Below are positions 2,518-62,568 of a stretch of 64,000 nt of DNA, one piece after another. The DNA is taken from assembly GCA_002869165.1 (NCBI GenBank), contig PKTK01000013.1, positions 50,124-114,123 on the forward strand, in the 5' to 3' direction. Numbering within the stretch: position 1 is the first letter of the stretch; every line of letters starts with the position of its first letter. This DNA comes from Candidatus Parcubacteria bacterium. Lineage in GTDB: Bacteria; Patescibacteriota; Patescibacteriia; Patescibacteriales; UBA12075. Below the pieces are notes generated by a model. The model had not been told where the DNA came from. It saw nothing but the letters and a program-made list of their open reading frames with translations, and searched no databases. The position numbers were made by a program, and so were the translations under genes.

Positions 2518-3081
2518 ATGAAAAACATATTTATAATCTCAGGTCCATCAGGAGTAGGAGAAGATTCAATTATCAAGGGACTCAAAAAAATCCTTCCAAT
2601 TGAAGTTATTATTACTACTACAACGAGAGATTTAAGACCAGGTGAATCACAAGGAAATCCTTATTATTTTATTTCAAAAGAAGAATTTAAAAACGGAATA
2701 GAGAATAATGAGTTTTTTGAATATGCCAAGGAATATAATGATAATTACTACGGGGTTACACACAAGGAAATAGAAAGAATAAAAAACAGTGACAAAATCG
2801 GAATTTGGAAGATTGAATATAAAGGAGTGATATATGCCAAAAAAATGTTTCCAAATATTATTGCTATTTTTATTAATGCACCTCTTGATATACTAGAAAA
2901 AAGAATAAGAAATAGAAGCAATGTTAGCGAAGAATATATAAAAGAAAGACTAGACTATACTAGAGAATGGTTGAAAAATATTGATATTTATAACTACAAA
3001 GTGGAAAATGAAGAAGGGAAACTAAAAGATACTATCAAAAAAGTAGCTAATATTATAGAAAAAAACTATATTGACGACTAG
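2518..3081 (+). CDS. gmk: Guanylate kinase
   Basis: Contains the P-loop ISGPSGVGEDS and the GMP-binding region TTTTRDLRPGESQGNPYYF. I placed the start at the ATG at 2518 because the upstream part of the tracked ORF lies in G+C-rich repeat DNA. Confidence 0.85.
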   Translation: MKNIFIISGPSGVGEDSIIKGLKKILPIEVIITTTTRDLRPGESQGNPYYFISKEEFKNGIENNEFFEYAKEYNDNYYGVTHKEIERIKNSDKIGIWKIEYKGVIYAKKMFPNIIAIFINAPLDILEKRIRNRSNVSEEYIKERLDYTREWLKNIDIYNYKVENEEGKLKDTIKKVANIIEKNYIDD

Positions 3082-3610: not shown

Positions 3611-3665
3611 AATTCTCCCCTAAGCTAGGGGAGTACCCGAATGGAGTGAGGGGGAGGGGTGTGTA
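3611..3665. repeat. Family B G+C-rich repeat, partial copy
   Basis: AATTCTCCCCTAAGCTAGGGGAGTACCCGAATGGAGTGAGGGGGAGGGGTGTG matches, in reverse complement, 2327-2364 and, directly, 12073-12115. Confidence 0.65.
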
Positions 3666-3725
3666 GCCGTGGAGGTTTCCGCCCAAGGCGGACCAGGTCG
3701 GATGACCTGGCAAGTCCATTTTTAT

Positions 3726-3812
<87 letters not shown>

Positions 3813-3844: not shown

Positions 3845-3918
3845 GGATGCATAGCTCAGTTGGCTAGAGCACCTCGTTTACACCGAGGGGGTCCGGGGTT
3901 CGAGTCCCTGTGCATCCA
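3845..3918 (+). tRNA. tRNA-Val (anticodon TAC)
   Basis: Acceptor stem GGATGCA/TGCATCC. D-arm GCTC...GAGC. The anticodon loop is TTTACAC in stem CCTCG/CGAGG. The T-arm is CGGGG-TTCGAGT-CCCTG. CCA is not encoded. Confidence 0.85.
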
Positions 3919-3929
3919 CAACTAAAAAG

Positions 3930-3955
3930 CTACACCGGAAGGTGTAGTTTTTTTG
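3930..3955 (+). terminator. Intrinsic terminator after tRNA-Val
   Basis: Stem CTACACC-GGAA-GGTGTAG followed by T7. Confidence 0.7.
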
Positions 3956-3982
3956 TTGCGGATGCATTGGGAAATCGAACCC
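3955..3982 (-). repeat. Inverted degenerate copy of the tRNA-Val 3' half
   Basis: The reverse complement, GGTTCGATTTCCCAATGCATCCGCAAC, compares with the tRNA 3' end GGTTCGAGTCCCTGTGCATCCACAAC. Confidence 0.7.
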
Positions 3983-4074
3983 CGGATTTGGATGGATCAA
4001 AAGAAGTTCAAAGTTAGTGGCTTGAAAGAAATAACATAAACTACATAATAAACGTATTCGACTGAAGTCGGTGA

Positions 4075-4095
4075 GAGTCCCTGTGCATCCACAAC
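4075..4095 (+). repeat. Direct 21-nt copy of the tRNA-Val 3' end (att-like)
   Basis: GAGTCCCTGTGCATCCACAAC is identical to 3902-3922. The identity starts inside the T-loop. Confidence 0.8.
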
Positions 4096-4099
4096 AAAA

Positions 4100-4130
4100 A
4101 GAACACTCTGAAAAAAGGGTGTTCTTTTTA
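4100..4130 (+). terminator. Intrinsic terminator-like hairpin after the tRNA-Val 3' copy
   Basis: Stem AGAACAC...GTGTTCT followed by TTTTTA. Confidence 0.55.
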
Positions 4131-8524: not shown

Positions 8525-9092
8525 ATTTTTATTTTTTTAAATAAATAAAATCAGGCCTTCCATTGTCTGAAAGTAATTATATTATATGTCAAAACCTAAT
8601 ATTTGGCAAGATAGTCAATATTTTAGGTATTATAAAAGGGCCCATTAGGCCTCCGTAATTTTTATATTATATATGAGTCCTTTAAATGAGCCCTACCTCT
8701 AAAAAATTGTTATAATATCGCTTTTTATAGCAATATCTATAAATCCCTTTTTCAGAGCTCATTTGACTATTCAACTTCTAGTCAATATTTTTTACCAATC
8801 TAGTGGTTTTTTTCAGAAATTTTTTTGTTTTTTTTATTTTCCAGAAAAAACCTTTGTTTTGTTTTTGTTTTTGATCTTTTTAAAGATTTGTATAAATTGT
8901 GTTGAATCCAATTTTACCGATCAGTAAAAAACAGAAAATTATATCAAATTTTTTGATATACTTTTCTTAATTGTGCAAAGAACATTTAACTATTATTACT
9001 ATACCATATAAATACGACTCGGTCAATCATATATTATCATTTTTTTTATACTAAAGTAAGGCAAAAATATGAACACATTTTTTATACACAAC

Positions 9093-9400
9093 TTAAGTCT
9101 ACACTAATGTAGACTTAAGTCTAAATCTTCAACAAACATATCCCCATTTTTTATGCTTTATCCACATATTAGTGTTGATAAGTCCACAATATTGTGGACT
9201 TAAATCTATTACTTATTTTAAACTGTTTAATTTTCCTCAATTTTCTTTCTATTTTAAGTCTACGCTAGCGTGGACTTAAATTAACTATTTTCTAAACAAC
9301 ATCCACGTTATATCATTAATACATTAATAAAAGGAATTGAAAGATAAAAAAACCATTATAAAATATACCCCAACTTAAGTCTATAATAGCGTGGACTTAA
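9093..9400. repeat. Cluster of four 26-bp palindromes, consensus TTAAGTCYAC-N6-GTRGACTTAA
   Basis: Copies lie at 9093-9118 (perfect), 9178-9203, 9254-9279 and 9375-9400. A fifth copy is at 36543-36568. The spacing is irregular (85, 76 and 121 bp). Confidence 0.8.
9158..9166 (+). promoter_or_regulatory. Perfect DnaA-box consensus TTATCCACA
   Basis: This is an exact 9-mer. Nearby degenerate boxes include TTATACACA (9081-9089) and AGTCCACA/TGTGGACT inside palindrome 2. Function is unproven. Confidence 0.35.
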
Positions 9401-9413
9401 ATTTTGACTTTCT

Positions 9414-9439
9414 AGATTCCTGCTTCCATAGGAATGACA
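9414..9439. repeat. Family A short hairpin unit
   Basis: AGATTCCTGCTTCCATAGGAATGACA. Confidence 0.55.
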
Positions 9440-9484
9440 AAAAAAGGAGTAAGGAATAACAGAGGTAGAAGTATTGTTTTGTGA

Positions 9485-9552
9485 AGGCGGCCACTTGCAG
9501 TGACCTACTCTACCTCACGTTCAAGAGATTCCTCGTTTCACTCGGAATGACA
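9485..9552. repeat. Family A long-form unit
   Basis: GGCGGCCACTTGCAGTGACCTACTCTACCTCACGTTCAAGAGATTCCTCGTTTCACTCGGAATGACA is collinear with 52214-52281. Confidence 0.7.
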
Positions 9553-9617
9553 AAAAAATAAGGTCTGGACCGCCCAGTCATCTGACTGGGCAAGGATTCT
9601 TACATTATTAAGTGATA

Positions 9618-9666
9618 TTTGAGGTCTGGACCGGATTCGAAGAGGCGGAAGCCTCACACCCTCAAG
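9618..9666 (-). repeat. Direct copy of the tRNA-Cys 3' end, fused to a 19-nt arm shared with the tRNA-Lys locus
   Basis: Positions 9618-9641 are identical to 9791-9814 (tRNA-Cys T-loop to 3' end plus flank). Positions 9633-9660 are the reverse complement of GGTGTGAGGCTTCCGCCTCTTCGAATCC, also found at 37532-37559 and 37710-37737. A shorter 12-nt copy is at 9561-9572. Confidence 0.8.
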
Positions 9667-9738
9667 AATTTTAATATGATCTTAAAAAATACTGTTTTAA
9701 CATTGGCATCATTTTTTTATCTATTTTTACATCTCAGG

Positions 9739-9762
9739 CACCGGTTCGAACCGATCCAGACT
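9739..9762 (+). repeat. Inverted degenerate copy of the tRNA-Cys 3' half
   Basis: CACCGGTTCGAACCGATCCAGACT compares with the tRNA sense sequence CACCGGTTCGAATCCGGTCCAGACC. Confidence 0.65.
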
Positions 9763-9786
9763 AAAAAAAGAACCCCATCTGGGGTT
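9763..9786 (-). terminator. Intrinsic terminator after tRNA-Cys
   Basis: The minus-strand sense reads AACCCC-AGAT-GGGGTT followed by CTTTTTTT. Confidence 0.7.
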
Positions 9787-9794
9787 ATTTTTTG

Positions 9795-9866
9795 AGGTCT
9801 GGACCGGATTCGAACCGGTGAATAACGGTTTTGCAAACCGTGGCCTTACCACTTGGCGACCAGACC
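9795..9866 (-). tRNA. tRNA-Cys (anticodon GCA)
   Basis: The reverse complement reads GGTCTGG..ACGGT-TTGCAAA-ACCGT..CCGGTTCGAATCCGG..CCAGACC-T. The cloverleaf is consistent. CCA is not encoded. Confidence 0.85.
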
Positions 9867-10041
9867 AGTATATTTATTTCAAAAATTTTAAATAAAAAAT
9901 TTTGAAATTTTTAACTAATTTTACTTTATAAATAATATCAGAAAGATTGATAAAAGACAAGGTTTTGATATTTTTCCTAAAATTAAAAAGGGGTCAAAAT
10001 TTGCCCCTTTTTATTTTAAAATATTTAGCCGTTATTATATT

Positions 10042-10113
10042 TGTCATTCCTGTGAGGGTAGAGATCTCATAGCCTTCTTATTTTACGAGATTCCTGCCTC
10101 CACAGAAATGACA
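10042..10113. repeat. Family A inverted-arm element
   Basis: TGTCATTCCTGTGAGGGTAGAGATCTC ... GAGATTCCTGCCTCCACAGAAATGACA. Confidence 0.6.
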
Positions 10114-34311: not shown

Positions 34312-35685
34312 TTAGAGTATTGTTGCTCCAAGTTCAGCAAGTTCGGATCTTTCACCCTTTTTAAGCTCAATATGAGCATAAAGCCTTTGGTCTTTCATTT
34401 TATCAATCAAGACACTTAGGCCATTGGAATTAATTCCCAAATATGGATGATCAATTTGACAAATGTCTCCTGTAAAAATAATCTTGGTTCCTTCACCTGC
34501 TCTTGTGACAATTGTTTTAACTTCATGAGGTGTCAGATTTTGCGCTTCATCAACTATCATATACATCTTCACAAGAGACCGGCCTCTAATATAAGCCAGT
34601 GGTTCAATGATTAACTTTTCCTCATCCAACATCTTTTGAAGTCTCTGAAACATTTCGGACTTCTCAGGAAATTGACTCCTTATCACAGCCAGATTGTAAT
34701 ACAAAGGCTGCATATAAGGCTTAATCTTGCTGTTTATATCTCCAGGAAGAAATCCAATGTCTTTGTTTGACAAAGGAACAATTGGACGTGCTAAAACTAT
34801 CTGACGATAGGAGCTCCTAGCTTCAAGCGCCGCTGCCAAGGCCATTAATGTTTTACCTGTGCCGGCTTTCCCACTAATAGTGACCAGCTTAACCTCGGGA
34901 TTTAATAAAGCGTGGACAGCAAATGATTGTTCGGCGTTTTTTGGAATAATCCCATATGCCTGTCTTTTAGAAACATGACGAAAAAAATGTCCTTCCCGCT
35001 CACCATCAGATTTAACAAAAGTTGCCAATGCAGATTTCTTGCCATTTTTCAATACAATAAACTCATTACAAGAAAACGAATTGGATTTTAGATTAAAATC
35101 ATCTACAGGAACACACTTACCTTCTTCATACAGACTATCAATTGCTTGAGAATTTACCCCTTCCTCCAGTCGACTTCCCGAATACAAATGCTCTACATCA
35201 ACATTGTCATTCGAATAATCTTCAGCATTTATCCCAAGCATGCAAGCTTTCATCCTGAGATTCACGTCTTTTGAAACCAAAACAACTTCCTCGTATTCTT
35301 TCTCTTTTGGATCAGCAGAAAAGCAATAAACAAAATTTAATATTTCGTTATCGTCTTTTTTCTTTCTAGGGAATGCCTTACTTAGATCATTATGGTATTC
35401 ATACTTATTGGGTTTGAGACGAATACAACCTCTGCCCTTACCAAGACTTACTCCTCCATTAAACATTGCCTTATCGTCAAAACTAGCAATGCGTCTGGTG
35501 AATGCTCTGGCATTATAGTTGTTTGTTACATTTCCTTTCTTAAAATCATCAAGTTCCTCCAAAACATGAGAACAAATAATAATATCATGCTCTTGAAAAT
35601 GTTCAGTACAAGAACTATCATGAAGGATTACATTTGTGTCAAGGATGAAAACCTTTTTCTTGCTACCACCTTGTTTCTTGGGCAT
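34312..35685 (-). CDS. PIN-domain plus PhoH-like ATPase (PhoH2/YlaK type)
   Basis: The PIN domain is VFILDTNVILHD. The PhoH Walker A is ISGKAGTGKTLMALAAA. Also present are VDEAQN and IIFTGDICQID. Confidence 0.85.
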   Translation of the reverse strand: MPKKQGGSKKKVFILDTNVILHDSSCTEHFQEHDIIICSHVLEELDDFKKGNVTNNYNARAFTRRIASFDDKAMFNGGVSLGKGRGCIRLKPNKYEYHNDLSKAFPRKKKDDNEILNFVYCFSADPKEKEYEEVVLVSKDVNLRMKACMLGINAEDYSNDNVDVEHLYSGSRLEEGVNSQAIDSLYEEGKCVPVDDFNLKSNSFSCNEFIVLKNGKKSALATFVKSDGEREGHFFRHVSKRQAYGIIPKNAEQSFAVHALLNPEVKLVTISGKAGTGKTLMALAAALEARSSYRQIVLARPIVPLSNKDIGFLPGDINSKIKPYMQPLYYNLAVIRSQFPEKSEMFQRLQKMLDEEKLIIEPLAYIRGRSLVKMYMIVDEAQNLTPHEVKTIVTRAGEGTKIIFTGDICQIDHPYLGINSNGLSVLIDKMKDQRLYAHIELKKGERSELAELGATIL

Positions 35686-37318: not shown

Positions 37319-37391
37319 GCGCCCATAGCTCAGTTGGTAGAGCAGTTGCCTCTTAAGCAAATGGTCGCAGGTTCGAATCCTGCTGGGCGCA
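37319..37391 (+). tRNA. tRNA-Lys (anticodon CTT)
   Basis: GCGCCCA..GCTC-AGTTGGTA-GAGC-A-GTTGC-CTCTTAA-GCAAA-TGGTC-GCAGG-TTCGAAT-CCTGC-TGGGCGC-A. Confidence 0.85.
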
Positions 37392-37785
37392 CAAAATAAA
37401 GCGCCGCCTGAATAGGGCGGTGTTTTATTTTGTGTGACTAGCAGATGAGAACCTGCTCTGAGGTGCAGGGGAAGAATAAAAGACAAGCTATTTGCAAAAA
37501 TATTATCAAAAACTAAACATGTTATTTTGATGGTGTGAGGCTTCCGCCTCTTCGAATCCTGCTGGGCGCACAAAATAAAAGACGTCTCGAAGAGGCGTTT
37601 TTTGTTTTGTGTGACTAGCAGATGAGAACCTGCTCTGAGGTACAGGGGAAGAATAAAAGACAAGTTATTTGCAAAAATATTATCAAAAAACTAAACATGT
37701 TATTTTGATGGTGTGAGGCTTCCGCCTCTTCGAATCCTGCTGGGCGCACAAAATAAAAGACGTCTCGAAGAGGCGTTTTTTGTAT
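37372..37785 (+). repeat. Tandem array of about 179-bp units, each beginning with the tRNA-Lys T-loop-to-3'-end segment (att-like)
   Basis: TTCGAATCCTGCTGGGCGCACAAAATAAA occurs at 37372, 37551 and 37729. The two intervening units are near-identical and end in GGTGTGAGGCTTCCGCCTC. Confidence 0.85.
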
Positions 37786-55930: not shown

Positions 55931-56914
55931 TTATAATTTCATAAATAATAGATCAATAGTGATTTTAAAATCACTTTGGCCGGTTTTTAATTCTTTATCC
56001 AATTTAAGTAATTTAGAAAAGATTATTTTAAGTTTTTGCTCTGTGAAATTACCAGCTTGTTGAATGCTCTTTTGCACTACATAAGGATGCAATTTAAGCT
56101 CAGTAGATATTTTTCTTTGACTGAGCCCGTCATCAAGTGCTCTTCTGACTTGAATAAGAATACGAAACTGTCTTGTTATCATGTGCATCAAATAAGTAGG
56201 CGCTACTCCAGCTTCAAGTTCATTTTCTAGTAACATCACTGCTTGGCTTTTGTTTTTGTTAGCAATCGCATCCGAAAAAGCAAAAATATTTTCATCCACA
56301 TTCCCTCTACACATAAGTTCTATATCATCATCCTTTATTTCTGTTACGGAGTCTAGTAGCTTTGATACTTTGGCATTTTTATAGTTGATTAACTTATTTA
56401 ACTCACTATCCAGCTTCCACAGATCACTACCAAATAAAGCAGTAAGTTTTAGACTAGCGTTCCTGCTTATATGTGCCTGCTTATTTTTTGCTCGTTCAAC
56501 CACCCAAGCACTAGCCGCAGTGGCACTGAGTAATTCAAATTCCTGAACAAACTTCTGACTACTTAAATATTTCCACAACACACTACGTTTATCAATATTT
56601 CCTGAATGTATGATAACAAATATATTTGAATTCTCATCTTGTTTTTTTTCTTGTTCTTCAAAATAAGTTTTGAGCTCTTTTAAAATTTCCTTATTTTTAT
56701 TTTCAAAAATATTTTCAATTATTATCAGTCTTTTTTTAGAAAATAAAGAACCCGCTCCGCTAGCTTCATTTATCTCGTTTATATCCGCTTTTTCACCATC
56801 AATAAACATAATAGCAGAACCAGTTTTATCAACCTCTCGCTCGAATTTGTTCTTTATTTCATTTAGTTTTTCCTTACACCTAAATGTATCTTGTCCGTGT
56901 ATAAAAAATAACAT
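55931..56914 (-). CDS. holA: DNA polymerase III delta subunit
   Basis: It has the length and pattern of HolA: FIHGQD.F....L..I.......D......F.G......EI......GSLFS.KRLIII.N. It lies 1 nt downstream of murD. Confidence 0.75.
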   Translation of the reverse strand: MLFFIHGQDTFRCKEKLNEIKNKFEREVDKTGSAIMFIDGEKADINEINEASGAGSLFSKKRLIIIENIFENKNKEILKELKTYFEEQEKKQDENSNIFVIIHSGNIDKRSVLWKYLSSQKFVQEFELLSATAASAWVVERAKNKQAHISRNASLKLTALFGSDLWKLDSELNKLINYKNAKVSKLLDSVTEIKDDDIELMCRGNVDENIFAFSDAIANKNKSQAVMLLENELEAGVAPTYLMHMITRQFRILIQVRRALDDGLSQRKISTELKLHPYVVQKSIQQAGNFTEQKLKIIFSKLLKLDKELKTGQSDFKITIDLLFMKL

Positions 56915-61593: not shown

Positions 61594-62568
61594 CTATATT
61601 TTTTTTACAAAATCCTTCATAAATTTCAAATATTTCTTAGCAAGTTCGGCTTTTTTACTATCTGCTTCGCCTAATTTAAACAAAGTCGGAATTGACACAA
61701 GCCCACCATACAAAAGATAGAAATTTTCATTATCCTTGTTTAATTTAAAATTAGAAATATTCTCAAAAGTTCTTTTAAGCTCTTCGTAATTTGCTTTACC
61801 CGACAAAGCCAGTATATCTATCGCACATCGATAAAAATTTAAATTCATATCAGCTACAACCCATTCTTTTTTGGGCATATAGGAGTCAATGATCAATAAT
61901 TGCCCATCAGTATAAATTAGATTTTCTAAATGAATATCCAAACAAGGGCCAAAAGCCTGATTTTTATGAATAGTTTTTGCGTACACCTTGTATAATTCTT
62001 CAAATTTCTTTTTGAATGAACTTAAGGTTTTACCTTTTACATGTTCGGGCACTGAAGATATCCAATCCAAAGTGGTTTGTCTTCTGACTTCCATAGCCTC
62101 AGCAAAACTAAGCTCTGCCTGAACCTCAGGTAAACGATTTAATTGAATAGCCAATTGGCTACCAATATCTCCTGCTTTACTTTCATCAATTTTATCATTA
62201 TAAAGAAGTGCGGCTAGACCGTTCTCGGTGTCAATCTTGTTCATTACCACTACCAATTCTTCAGCGATTTCATGATTTACAAAAACGATCTCACCGTCTT
62301 TGAGTTTGCACCCAAACAAATCAGTGTAAACATTTGGAGTAAAAAAATTATTCCAATCAAAATCTCTTTTGGAAAAATCAAAACGATTATCTTTCTTAGA
62401 AAGATCAAAAAATAACTCATTAAAAAATTCACAATCATCCTTGTAAATTTTATAAACTTGGGTTTCAAAAATAAAAACATTGGAAATAGTTGTTTCTACG
62501 TGCTTTGGCTTAGATTTTTCACTTTCCAATTTTCCATCTTTAAAAGCCTTAATTAATTCTTTTTGCAT
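61594..62568 (-). CDS. Kinase-like (aminoglycoside/choline-kinase fold) protein, tentative
   Basis: LDIHLENLIYTDGQLLIIDSY resembles the H-x-D-x4-N ... IDf catalytic and metal loops of APH-fold kinases. The rest is unrecognised. Confidence 0.35.
   Translation of the reverse strand: MQKELIKAFKDGKLESEKSKPKHVETTISNVFIFETQVYKIYKDDCEFFNELFFDLSKKDNRFDFSKRDFDWNNFFTPNVYTDLFGCKLKDGEIVFVNHEIAEELVVVMNKIDTENGLAALLYNDKIDESKAGDIGSQLAIQLNRLPEVQAELSFAEAMEVRRQTTLDWISSVPEHVKGKTLSSFKKKFEELYKVYAKTIHKNQAFGPCLDIHLENLIYTDGQLLIIDSYMPKKEWVVADMNLNFYRCAIDILALSGKANYEELKRTFENISNFKLNKDNENFYLLYGGLVSIPTLFKLGEADSKKAELAKKYLKFMKDFVKKI

Follow-up and report, generated by a model that had tools for sequence, protein, structure and literature searches.

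Why does one and the same 28-nt sequence adjoin the T-loop segment of two different tRNA genes? The question arises from a 64,000-nt stretch of a groundwater organism with a tiny genome, a Candidatus Parcubacteria bacterium (contig PKTK01000013.1; hereafter referred to as the window), in which GGTGTGAGGCTTCCGCCTCTTCGAATCC occurs near a tRNA-Cys gene at 9633–9660 on the minus strand, and near a tRNA-Lys gene at 37532–37559 and 37710–37737 on the plus strand. The original prediction took the 28-mer for an attR-type junction. The answer that we favour, and hold tentatively, is that it forms the right-hand junction in a family of protein-less cassettes made by site-specific recombination in the T-loop, with a recombinase supplied in trans.

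All three copies of the 28-mer proved to be exact (0 mismatches). It had 0 matches in 100 dinucleotide-preserving shuffles, and the 19-nt arm alone detected the same three sites in the window, with no near-matches at three or fewer mismatches; chance similarity was thus ruled out. The two genes, tRNA-Cys(GCA) (9794–9866, minus strand) and tRNA-Lys(CTT) (37319–37392, plus strand), were called by both ARAGORN and Rfam, and at both loci each copy of the 28-mer was confirmed to run on into the 3′ end of the local tRNA. The 24-nt direct repeat claimed for the Cys locus (9618–9641 and 9791–9814) and the further 12-nt copy (9561–9572) were exact. An inverted, degenerate copy exists there as well, although it ends at 9763 and not, as had been stated, at 9762. 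The inclusion of TTCGAATCC in the constant junction did not hold, as the T-loop varies with the local tRNA. At the metagenomic locus L005, a tRNA-Arg with the T-loop TTCGATT is followed by a copy in which the T-loop is again TTCGATT, which assigns the T-loop to the tRNA-derived part. Judged from these sequences, the constant arm measures 19 nt (24 nt if the flank TTGAK is counted), and the tRNA copy joins it at tRNA position 53/54 or inside the common TTCGA.

Nine modules of the same anatomy were recovered, at nine tRNA loci that represent eight tRNA species in four Parcubacteria/Falkowbacteria genomes. Their parts come in a fixed order: the tRNA, an A-rich trailer with a terminator hairpin, an inverted copy, the motif YTGAG(R)TG, a spacer, the arm, and a second copy. 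The inverted copy is mismatched and spans the trailer back to the T-stem base (tRNA positions 49–73). The AT-rich spacer has a length of 60–90 nt. The arm of the window (arm A), composed of TTGAK, GGTGT and the hairpin GAGGC-TTCC-GCCTC, adjoins T54 of an exact tRNA copy with its trailer and terminator, and an arm-like motif (TGAGGTG...) recurs behind the inverted copy. Units measure 169–219 bp, with 146–198 bp of non-coding DNA between the copies, and inside none of the nine did we find an open reading frame (ORF), integrase or cargo. The identity block begins exactly at T54 in eight of the nine modules and runs 21–95 nt through the tRNA end; a terminator-like hairpin and a T-run follow every copy. 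The tRNAs with modules end a transcription unit, and all nine have the T-loop TTCGA; tRNA-Pro, with the T-loop TTCAAAT, is the only terminal tRNA in the window that has no module.

At the Cys locus, read on the minus strand, positions 54–73 of the tRNA (63.7 bits in Rfam) together with CAAA constitute copy 1 of the direct repeat (9791–9814). The hairpin AACCCCAGATGGGGTT that follows the tRNA (9771–9786) is terminator-like on both strands, and in an inverted-repeat scan it formed the apex of a long hairpin pairing the tRNA 3′ part with the inverted copy. The latter, a degenerate version of tRNA-Cys 48–73 (TAGTCTGGATCGGTTCGAACCGGTG, 9739–9763), is succeeded by CCTGAGATG (9730–9738) and by the AT-rich spacer (9666–9729), which is unconserved among arm-A modules and contains only weak promoter-like hexamers. 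The conserved right arm (TTGAG, GGTGT, GAGGC-TTCC-GCCTC; 9642–9665) ends where T54 of copy 2 begins (9618–9641; tRNA-Cys 54–73 plus CAAA, 100% identical to copy 1). The tRNA-Cys 3′ end is present once more, in a third and incomplete copy (AGAATCC ... GGTCCAGACCT, 9552–9600) that precedes a T-run and is split by a 22-nt hairpin, TTGCCCAGTCAGATGACTGGGC, located between AATCC and GGTCCAGACC; this copy serves to terminate the unit and is perhaps the remnant of an older, rearranged one.

The Lys locus, on the plus strand behind the last gene of an Arg-Met-Lys cluster, contains two tandem units with a period of 178–179 bp, and its three direct repeats (copy 1, 37372–37400; copy 2, 37551–37579; copy 3, 37729–37757) are exact. 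The left part of unit 1 (37401–37464) consists of terminator 1 (37401–37431), an inverted copy of positions 49–73 (37433–37456) and TCTGAGGT (37457–37464); in its right part (37527–37579), the arm TTGAT-GGTGT-hairpin (37527–37550) leads into copy 2. Unit 2 has its left part at 37581–37641 (terminator 2, 37581–37603; inverted copy, 37610–37633; TCTGAGGT, 37634–37641) and its right part at 37705–37781 (arm, 37705–37728; copy 3; terminator 2 again, 37759–37781). The two inverted copies and the tandem period had escaped the original prediction, as had a third module with a different arm, at tRNA-Val(TAC) (3845–4129). The Lys junction CGCCTCTTCGA is also an 11-nt perfect complement of the 3′ half of the terminator downstream (37545–37555 with 37587–37597, and 37723–37733 with 37765–37775), which gives three mutually exclusive, attenuator-like hairpins; this was seen in the Lys units only and at no other locus.

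Searches for the 19-mer elsewhere showed that the arm is not a generic dispersed repeat. Species-representative genomes totalling 596 Gb contained four matches to it, about as many as chance alone would give. Three of them lay in unrelated DNA of 52–61% GC with no tRNA sequence after them, and the fourth, in Candidatus Falkowbacteria RIFOXYD12_FULL_34_57 (L004), was a complete module behind tRNA-Val(CAC). A metagenome scan gave two matches, both of them modules: L006, which is the L004 locus again, and L005, behind tRNA-Arg(GCG). All matches were thus either modules or chance-level GC-rich DNA, and one arm adjoins T54 of Cys, Lys, Val(CAC) and Arg tRNAs in three genomes. L004 has a second module, at tRNA-Gly(CCC) (2763–3010), in a degenerate or divergent form: its 150-nt spacer is purine-rich, an arm-like GATGTGAGGCGGAA stands right after the inverted copy, the junction has no hairpin, and the copy starts at about position 59.

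The S1 protein of the window assigned the sequence to a Candidatus Parcubacteria MAG. Syntenic loci were retrieved through homologues of S1, and every tRNA was scanned for a downstream copy of its 3′ end; contig L058 had no tRNA. In L010 (80% S1 identity), modules were present at tRNA-Cys and tRNA-Val(TAC), both with an arm B, (TTGAG)GGTGT-GCCTT-TTTC-AAGGC, that also adjoins T54. The arm type is therefore specific to a genome and common to the tRNAs within it, arm A in the window and arm B in L010. Unoccupied sites in relatives, for which the original prediction had proposed a search, were found in six related genomes (L011/L012, L014, L016, L032, L035 and L037). Here the terminator directly follows the tRNA, at both tRNA-Cys and tRNA-Val(TAC) in L011/L012, L014 and L032, and at tRNA-Cys in L016; the comparison covered tRNA-Leu and tRNA-Val(TAC) in L035, and tRNA-His and tRNA-Arg only in L037–L042. 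Occupancy was nearly all-or-none per genome, with four of the five terminal tRNAs occupied in the lineage of the window and none in the six others. The full-length element with integrase and cargo that had been anticipated was seen at none of the approximately 50 tRNA gene calls across the loci examined, many of which are the same gene in overlapping assemblies.

Unit numbers differed even between nearly identical sequences. L007 and L008 are 99.98% identical (two mismatches and one gap over 21 kb); L007 had a tandem pair of 173-bp units at tRNA-Cys and another at tRNA-Val(TAC), whereas L008 and the window had one at each. Logan contigs end exactly at modules, and this copy-number difference may in part be due to repeat collapse in assembly. 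The two Lys units of the window are slightly diverged, which shows that tandem copies are real.

The Val(TAC) module, on the plus strand, comprises the tRNA (3845–3919), a terminator (3924–3954), an inverted copy (3958–3986), a core AAGTTAGTGGCTTGAAAGAA (4011–4030) with the promoter-like TTGAAA-16-CATAAT, a leader (4051–4074), a copy of tRNA 57–73 with trailer (4075–4095) and a terminator (4096–4129). The order of the parts is that of the Cys and Lys modules; the spacer and leader are different ones. A tRNA-Ala(TGC) module of the same lineage lies just past the right end of the window, at L043 8459–8810. Despite a distance of about 60 kb between the two loci, their spacers are clearly homologous, with the cores AAGTTAGTGGCTTGAWAGAA and AACGTRTTCGAST, and the AAGTTAGTGGCTTGAWAGAA core contains a good −35/−10 match; the promoter scores are 10/12 and 9/12, in a position to start transcription at the leader. 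To judge from their spacers, these two modules of the window lineage make up a second cassette family. As the spacers are shared whereas both flanks are tRNA-specific, the interiors of cassettes can be common to different tRNA loci and apparently move from one to another, a point in favour of recombination.

Taken together, the duplicated 3′ end, the T-loop junction, the empty sites, the tandem units and the occurrence of one arm at several tRNAs match site-specific recombination. The proposal of a single family that recombines in the T-loop core was thus supported in part, by the arm at four tRNA species, the empty sites and the tandem units; the accompanying view of the units as remnants was not. 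The modules show the att-type features (duplicated segment, T-loop junction, empty sites) and lack the gene content of an integrated element. In our favoured account, the cassettes would be attP-sized integration modules, each consisting of an attL and an attR that enclose nothing else. Recombination at the T-loop, with TTCGA as the shared core, would both create and multiply them, by means of a recombinase that would be encoded elsewhere in the genome. The gene itself is kept whole by the tRNA's own positions 54–73, trailer and terminator, the first part of each cassette. The conserved arm and the second, arm-like motif would serve as recombinase binding sites, the arm being conserved for the same reason as the ends of miniature inverted-repeat transposable elements (MITEs), and the units may be mobile now or may have been so until recently. 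The unit length is about that of a typical attP.

Known systems offer partial parallels to such cassettes. For mycobacteriophage Ms6, which integrates at tRNA-Ala, the 7-bp T-loop is the likely strand-exchange region, and a changed core retargets integration to other tRNAs (PMC1762012). As with T-loop integrases of this kind, the tRNA 3′ segment here is duplicated on both sides with a junction in the 7-nt T-loop (TTCGAA/TTCGAG), the target may be one tRNA or another as long as the core matches, and the tRNA is rebuilt by the element's copy and terminator. Unlike Ms6, the insert here is about 150 bp of unique DNA that contains no integrase, excisionase or cargo; identity begins at T54, whereas the 26-bp core of Ms6 starts at the 5′ strand of the T-stem; and every unit has an inverted, wobble-paired copy of its own tRNA, with no free attP found in our searches.

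Cis-mobilizable elements (CIMEs) and their tandem accretion are known from the ICESt1/ICESt3 system of Streptococcus thermophilus. Like the modules, they are bounded by attL and attR, have no recombination genes of their own, occur in tandem and use an integrase in trans, which is what we propose here. CIMEs, however, are kilobases long and have a recognisable parent in the same species, whereas the units here are about 0.2 kb (approximately ten times smaller), have no known parent and occupy several tRNA species per genome. With MITEs and with integron cassettes devoid of ORFs, the modules share the non-autonomous unit of about 100–300 bp, the multiple copies or arrays, and the conservation of only the sequence that the enzyme needs, with a variable interior. 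They are not MITEs, because terminal inverted repeats are absent and the duplication, of 21–95 nt, is not fixed; as regards the hallmark of MITEs and palindrome-associated transposable elements (PATEs), terminal inverted repeats or end hairpins of the IS200/605 type with a fixed-length target duplication, the module ends were not inverted repeats of each other, and the duplication was always from T54. They are not integron cassettes either, because there is no attC-type R″/L″-L′/R′ hairpin, or other pairing, across the junction, and no attI or intI.

Several results weigh against recombination in trans as the source of the modules. The Pfam scan, which covered 40 of the 44 window ORFs of at least 150 aa and two shorter ones, detected no recombinase, transposase, reverse transcriptase or Cas domain; it excluded the two ORFs that overlie the Lys module and those at 55931–56914 and 61594–62568, and the L043 gene that matches 55931–56914 has DNA polymerase III delta domains. 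No integrase was present in the 64-kb window and about 20 kb of flanking sequence of this genome, and no recombinase, transposase or reverse transcriptase among the called genes around modules at the other loci. The window is ordinary chromosome, with genes of the GyrA, FtsK, PolA, S1, LspA, TsaE, SMC, RecQ, SHMT and TrpRS/TyrRS types. Arms A and B and the core of the second family had 0 matches in IMG/VR, where relaxed structural patterns returned only ordinary class I/II tRNAs and ORFs. No phage or plasmid matched the modules, and searches of viral, phage, plasmid, genome and metagenome sequences revealed no free attP, circular form or full-length relative. Two further difficulties are mechanistic: the inverted copy of each unit corresponds to its own tRNA, which simple hopping from tRNA to tRNA does not predict, and a hop into a new tRNA would first give a chimeric, broken tRNA.

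The inverted copy itself counts on the same side. It ends at the T-stem base (positions 47–50) in all nine modules. When the tRNA 3′ part and terminator were aligned with the inverted arm, 306 Watson-Crick and 43 G-U pairs were obtained against 5 A-C (binomial p = 1.4e-8), and the tRNA part alone showed 23 pair-keeping changes (C>T 17, A>G 6) versus three pair-breaking transitions (G>A 2, T>C 1). This bias would reflect either selected pairing in the tRNA sense, as RNA or single-stranded DNA, or a transcription-linked strand bias; strand-biased mutation could also give the ratio of 43 G-U to 5 A-C. Both explanations imply transcription in the sense direction beyond the terminator. The stop at the T-stem and the G-U pairing suggest a constraint at the RNA level, and a tRNA-specific inverted copy and covariation in the hairpin would be poorly explained by cassettes. 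The inverted copies of arm-A modules (Lys 37433–37456, L004 and L005) share a deviation in the T-loop, TGAGAA/CAAGAA for TTCGAA, which sets G-A/A-G mismatches opposite G57-A58; this may mean either that the piece has a common origin or that an internal loop is under selection.

The hairpin of the arm points in a similar direction. In three genomes, all five copies of arm A are 100% identical. The rest of the interior of arm-A units is unrelated between loci, and arm-A and arm-B spacers are no more similar than shuffled sequence. Identity of the arm beside an unalignable spacer indicates selection on about 24 nt. Between arms A and B, the 5-bp stem is kept, fully paired, as is the 4-nt loop; four pairs out of five differ in both of their bases, and the loop (TTYC) and the 5′ flank TGAGGGTGT are constant. 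Pairing that is kept through four double changes suggests a folded nucleic acid and not a protein site on duplex DNA, a further point against the cassettes. As two variants amount effectively to one compensatory event, this covariation is suggestive, not conclusive; the strand of the arm also appears ambiguous, the loops on the opposite strand reading GGAA/GAAA (GNRA).

An origin of the arm from the variable arm of tRNA-Leu(GAG) was rejected, since only CTTGAGGG and TGTGAG are common to the two and the hairpins mismatch in either genome. The 5′ part of the arm, CTTGAGGG..TGTGAG (9660–9666 and 37527–37536), matches the anticodon loop and the variable-arm start of this gene (3726–3812). The segment directly upstream of the gene (3620–3725) is GC-rich and hairpin-rich (GGGGTGTGTAGCCGTGGAGGTTTCCGCCCAAGGCGGACCAGGTCGGATGACCTGG), has no Rfam match and includes, at 3672–3685, a three-mismatch relative of the arm hairpin.

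These features give weight to the main rival explanation, a possible one although we doubt it, in which the module is a small-RNA gene made of the 19-nt hairpin handle, tRNA 54–73 and the terminator. A promoter in the spacer would drive transcription from at or near GGUGU, to yield a handle (5 nt plus the hairpin with its 5-bp stem and 4-nt loop) and a single-stranded 20-nt tRNA segment. A protein would bind the handle, and the segment would pair with complements of the 3′ end of the tRNA, whether in the inverted copy next to it, in RNA from read-through, or in tRNA-integrating elements (their attP sites or transcripts). The segment has the sense of the tRNA and therefore cannot pair with the tRNA itself. 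This explanation would account for the hairpin maintained by compensatory change with its conserved loop (UUYC) and 5′ flank, for the exact joining of the hairpin base to T54 in both arm types, and for the invariance of the arm in three genomes beside spacers that cannot be aligned. It is also in keeping with the terminator-like hairpin and T-run behind every copy, with the good promoter match of the second family, starting at the leader, and with predicted folds that comprise the handle hairpin, an open tRNA-derived segment and the terminator; the all-or-none distribution among genomes would fit a trans-acting partner protein. However, the promoter matches of arm-A and arm-B modules are weak and inconsistently placed, the strand is ambiguous, the hairpin variants are only two independent ones, there is no Rfam match, and the window contains no cas-like or other candidate partner gene. 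By itself, a small-RNA gene also leaves the joining of the arm to T54 at many tRNAs, and the tandem units, unexplained. The cassette and small-RNA explanations are not mutually exclusive.

In a variant that we consider unlikely, the modules would be genes for hairpin-capped guides, one per tRNA, that resemble 3′ tRNA-derived fragments (tRF-3), or else a repair kit for tRNAs cut in the T-loop. As guides, they would have an effector that recognises the complement of the tRNA 3′ end and polices or directs tRNA-integrating elements. For repair, the inverted copy (49–73, spanning 53/54) would be the splint and the downstream copy the replacement part. The conserved handle, the exact junction, the wobble-kept antisense partner and the all-or-none distribution are compatible with either version.

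A small-RNA gene would likewise have parallels among known RNAs. Type V-K transposons associated with clustered regularly interspaced short palindromic repeats (CRISPR) have solitary or delocalized CRISPR RNAs (crRNAs) that match tRNA genes, and tRF-3 small RNAs are known in eukaryotes. As in a Cas12a-type crRNA, a constant 19-nt handle stands here directly 5′ of a 20-nt variable segment, and this segment, which extends from the T-loop to the discriminator as in a tRF-3, is encoded beside the tRNA concerned. Unlike crRNA loci, the modules are associated with no repeat-spacer array, transposon, or cas or tnp genes, and their transcript is a predicted one. Each unit has one handle and no second intact repeat, and the match to CRISPR-DR9 was at chance level (E=0.12).

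Improbable, in our view, is the original prediction's own interpretation, that the modules are decayed attL/attR remnants of once-large islands or prophages of one family, with nearly everything deleted and at most a remnant left. A direct repeat of the tRNA 3′ end next to a foreign arm is the classical scar of integration at a tRNA, these genomes are streamlined and prone to deletion, and the broken third copy at the Cys locus (9552–9600) shows that old copies do decay. All nine units, however, fall within 169–219 bp and have the same parts in the same order, with no coding fragment, be it of integrase or of cargo. One size, one order and a perfect 24-mer beside unrelated DNA do not fit the neutral scar of a large island, and a 100% conserved arm next to unrelated DNA is incompatible with neutral decay. 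The tandem duplication that distinguishes two 99.98% identical assemblies, and the lack of a full-length relative in the genome, metagenome, viral, phage and plasmid searches, likewise tell against it.

Hardly any better is the case for an origin by RNA-level or template-switch events, which we rate as quite improbable. With the terminator snapped back as a primer, a polymerase or reverse transcriptase would copy the tRNA 3′ domain as far as the T-stem base, giving the inverted copy; a chimera of a hairpin-ended leader RNA and a tRNA fragment from T54 would then recombine in by homology. Both boundaries do fall on landmarks of RNA structure (47–50 in all nine modules, and 54 for the direct copy), A-rich trailers can pair with the U-tracts of the terminators to give a primable 3′ end, and the changes in the inverted copy are strand-asymmetric, as described above. 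Against this, no reverse transcriptase was found among the scanned window ORFs, and group II introns are reported to be absent from Patescibacteria (PMC13011429). The scheme includes several unproven steps, and conservation of the arm would need an added function.

Chance or an assembly artefact is effectively refuted for the existence of the modules and most improbable overall, given the absence of shuffle matches and the same architecture assembled independently in NCBI, ENA, JGI and Logan for four genomes, even if collapsed repeats, at which Logan contigs break, could underlie part of the differences between one and two units and leave the copy numbers alone uncertain.

Other known structures were considered and rejected. 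A group I or T-loop intron does not apply, as the upstream tRNA is intact and there is no intron core; the tRNA introns of Patescibacteria are located at 35/36, in the anticodon loop (PMC13011429). A split or permuted tRNA would need a matching 5′ half, which is absent, and the full gene is present. For a retron or diversity-generating retroelement, there is neither a reverse transcriptase nor an adenine-specific mismatch pattern. Box C/D-like elements (UGAUGG ... CUGA beside the antisense copy) fit in their order only in tandem units, and the box C lacks the second GA. The module is not the leader of a downstream gene, as there is no consistent downstream gene. At the gathering score of Rfam 15, only seven tRNAs passed, and three module regions listed by E-value were sub-threshold noise; a literature search for the arm sequence returned one irrelevant primer.

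The surroundings of the modules have features of their own. The Cys module borders a region of about 1 kb without genes (8540–9400) that contains four spaced palindromes, TTAAGTCCAC-N-GTRGACTTAA, and a perfect DnaA-box 9-mer (9158–9166). The GC/AT skew changes sign around 6–10 kb and the flanking genes converge, which is terminus-like more than origin-like. On either side of the Cys locus are repeated hairpin units, TTTTTTTGTCATTCC-N-GGAATCT (9414–9445, 9526–9558 and approximately 10030–10110; 11945–12020 in L007), which appear, from their sequences, to form a small repeat family of their own. The gene at 34312–35685, about 1.4 kb upstream of the Arg-Met-Lys tRNA cluster, codes for a fusion of a PIN-domain nuclease with a PhoH-like ATPase, with no established link to the modules.

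Should the modules prove to be cassettes of attP size that are mobilised in trans, no smaller tRNA-integrating elements would be known. They would live, much as MITEs do, as parasites of a site-specific recombinase, in genomes considered almost devoid of mobile DNA, and one recombination system would colonise many tRNA species through the T-loop that these share. If they are RNA genes, they would constitute a new class of bacterial small RNAs from tRNA 3′ ends, with a link to defence against, or control of, elements that target tRNAs. For annotation, the practical lesson is that a tRNA gene followed by a partial copy of itself, in genomes of the candidate phyla radiation, does not automatically mark the edge of a genomic island.

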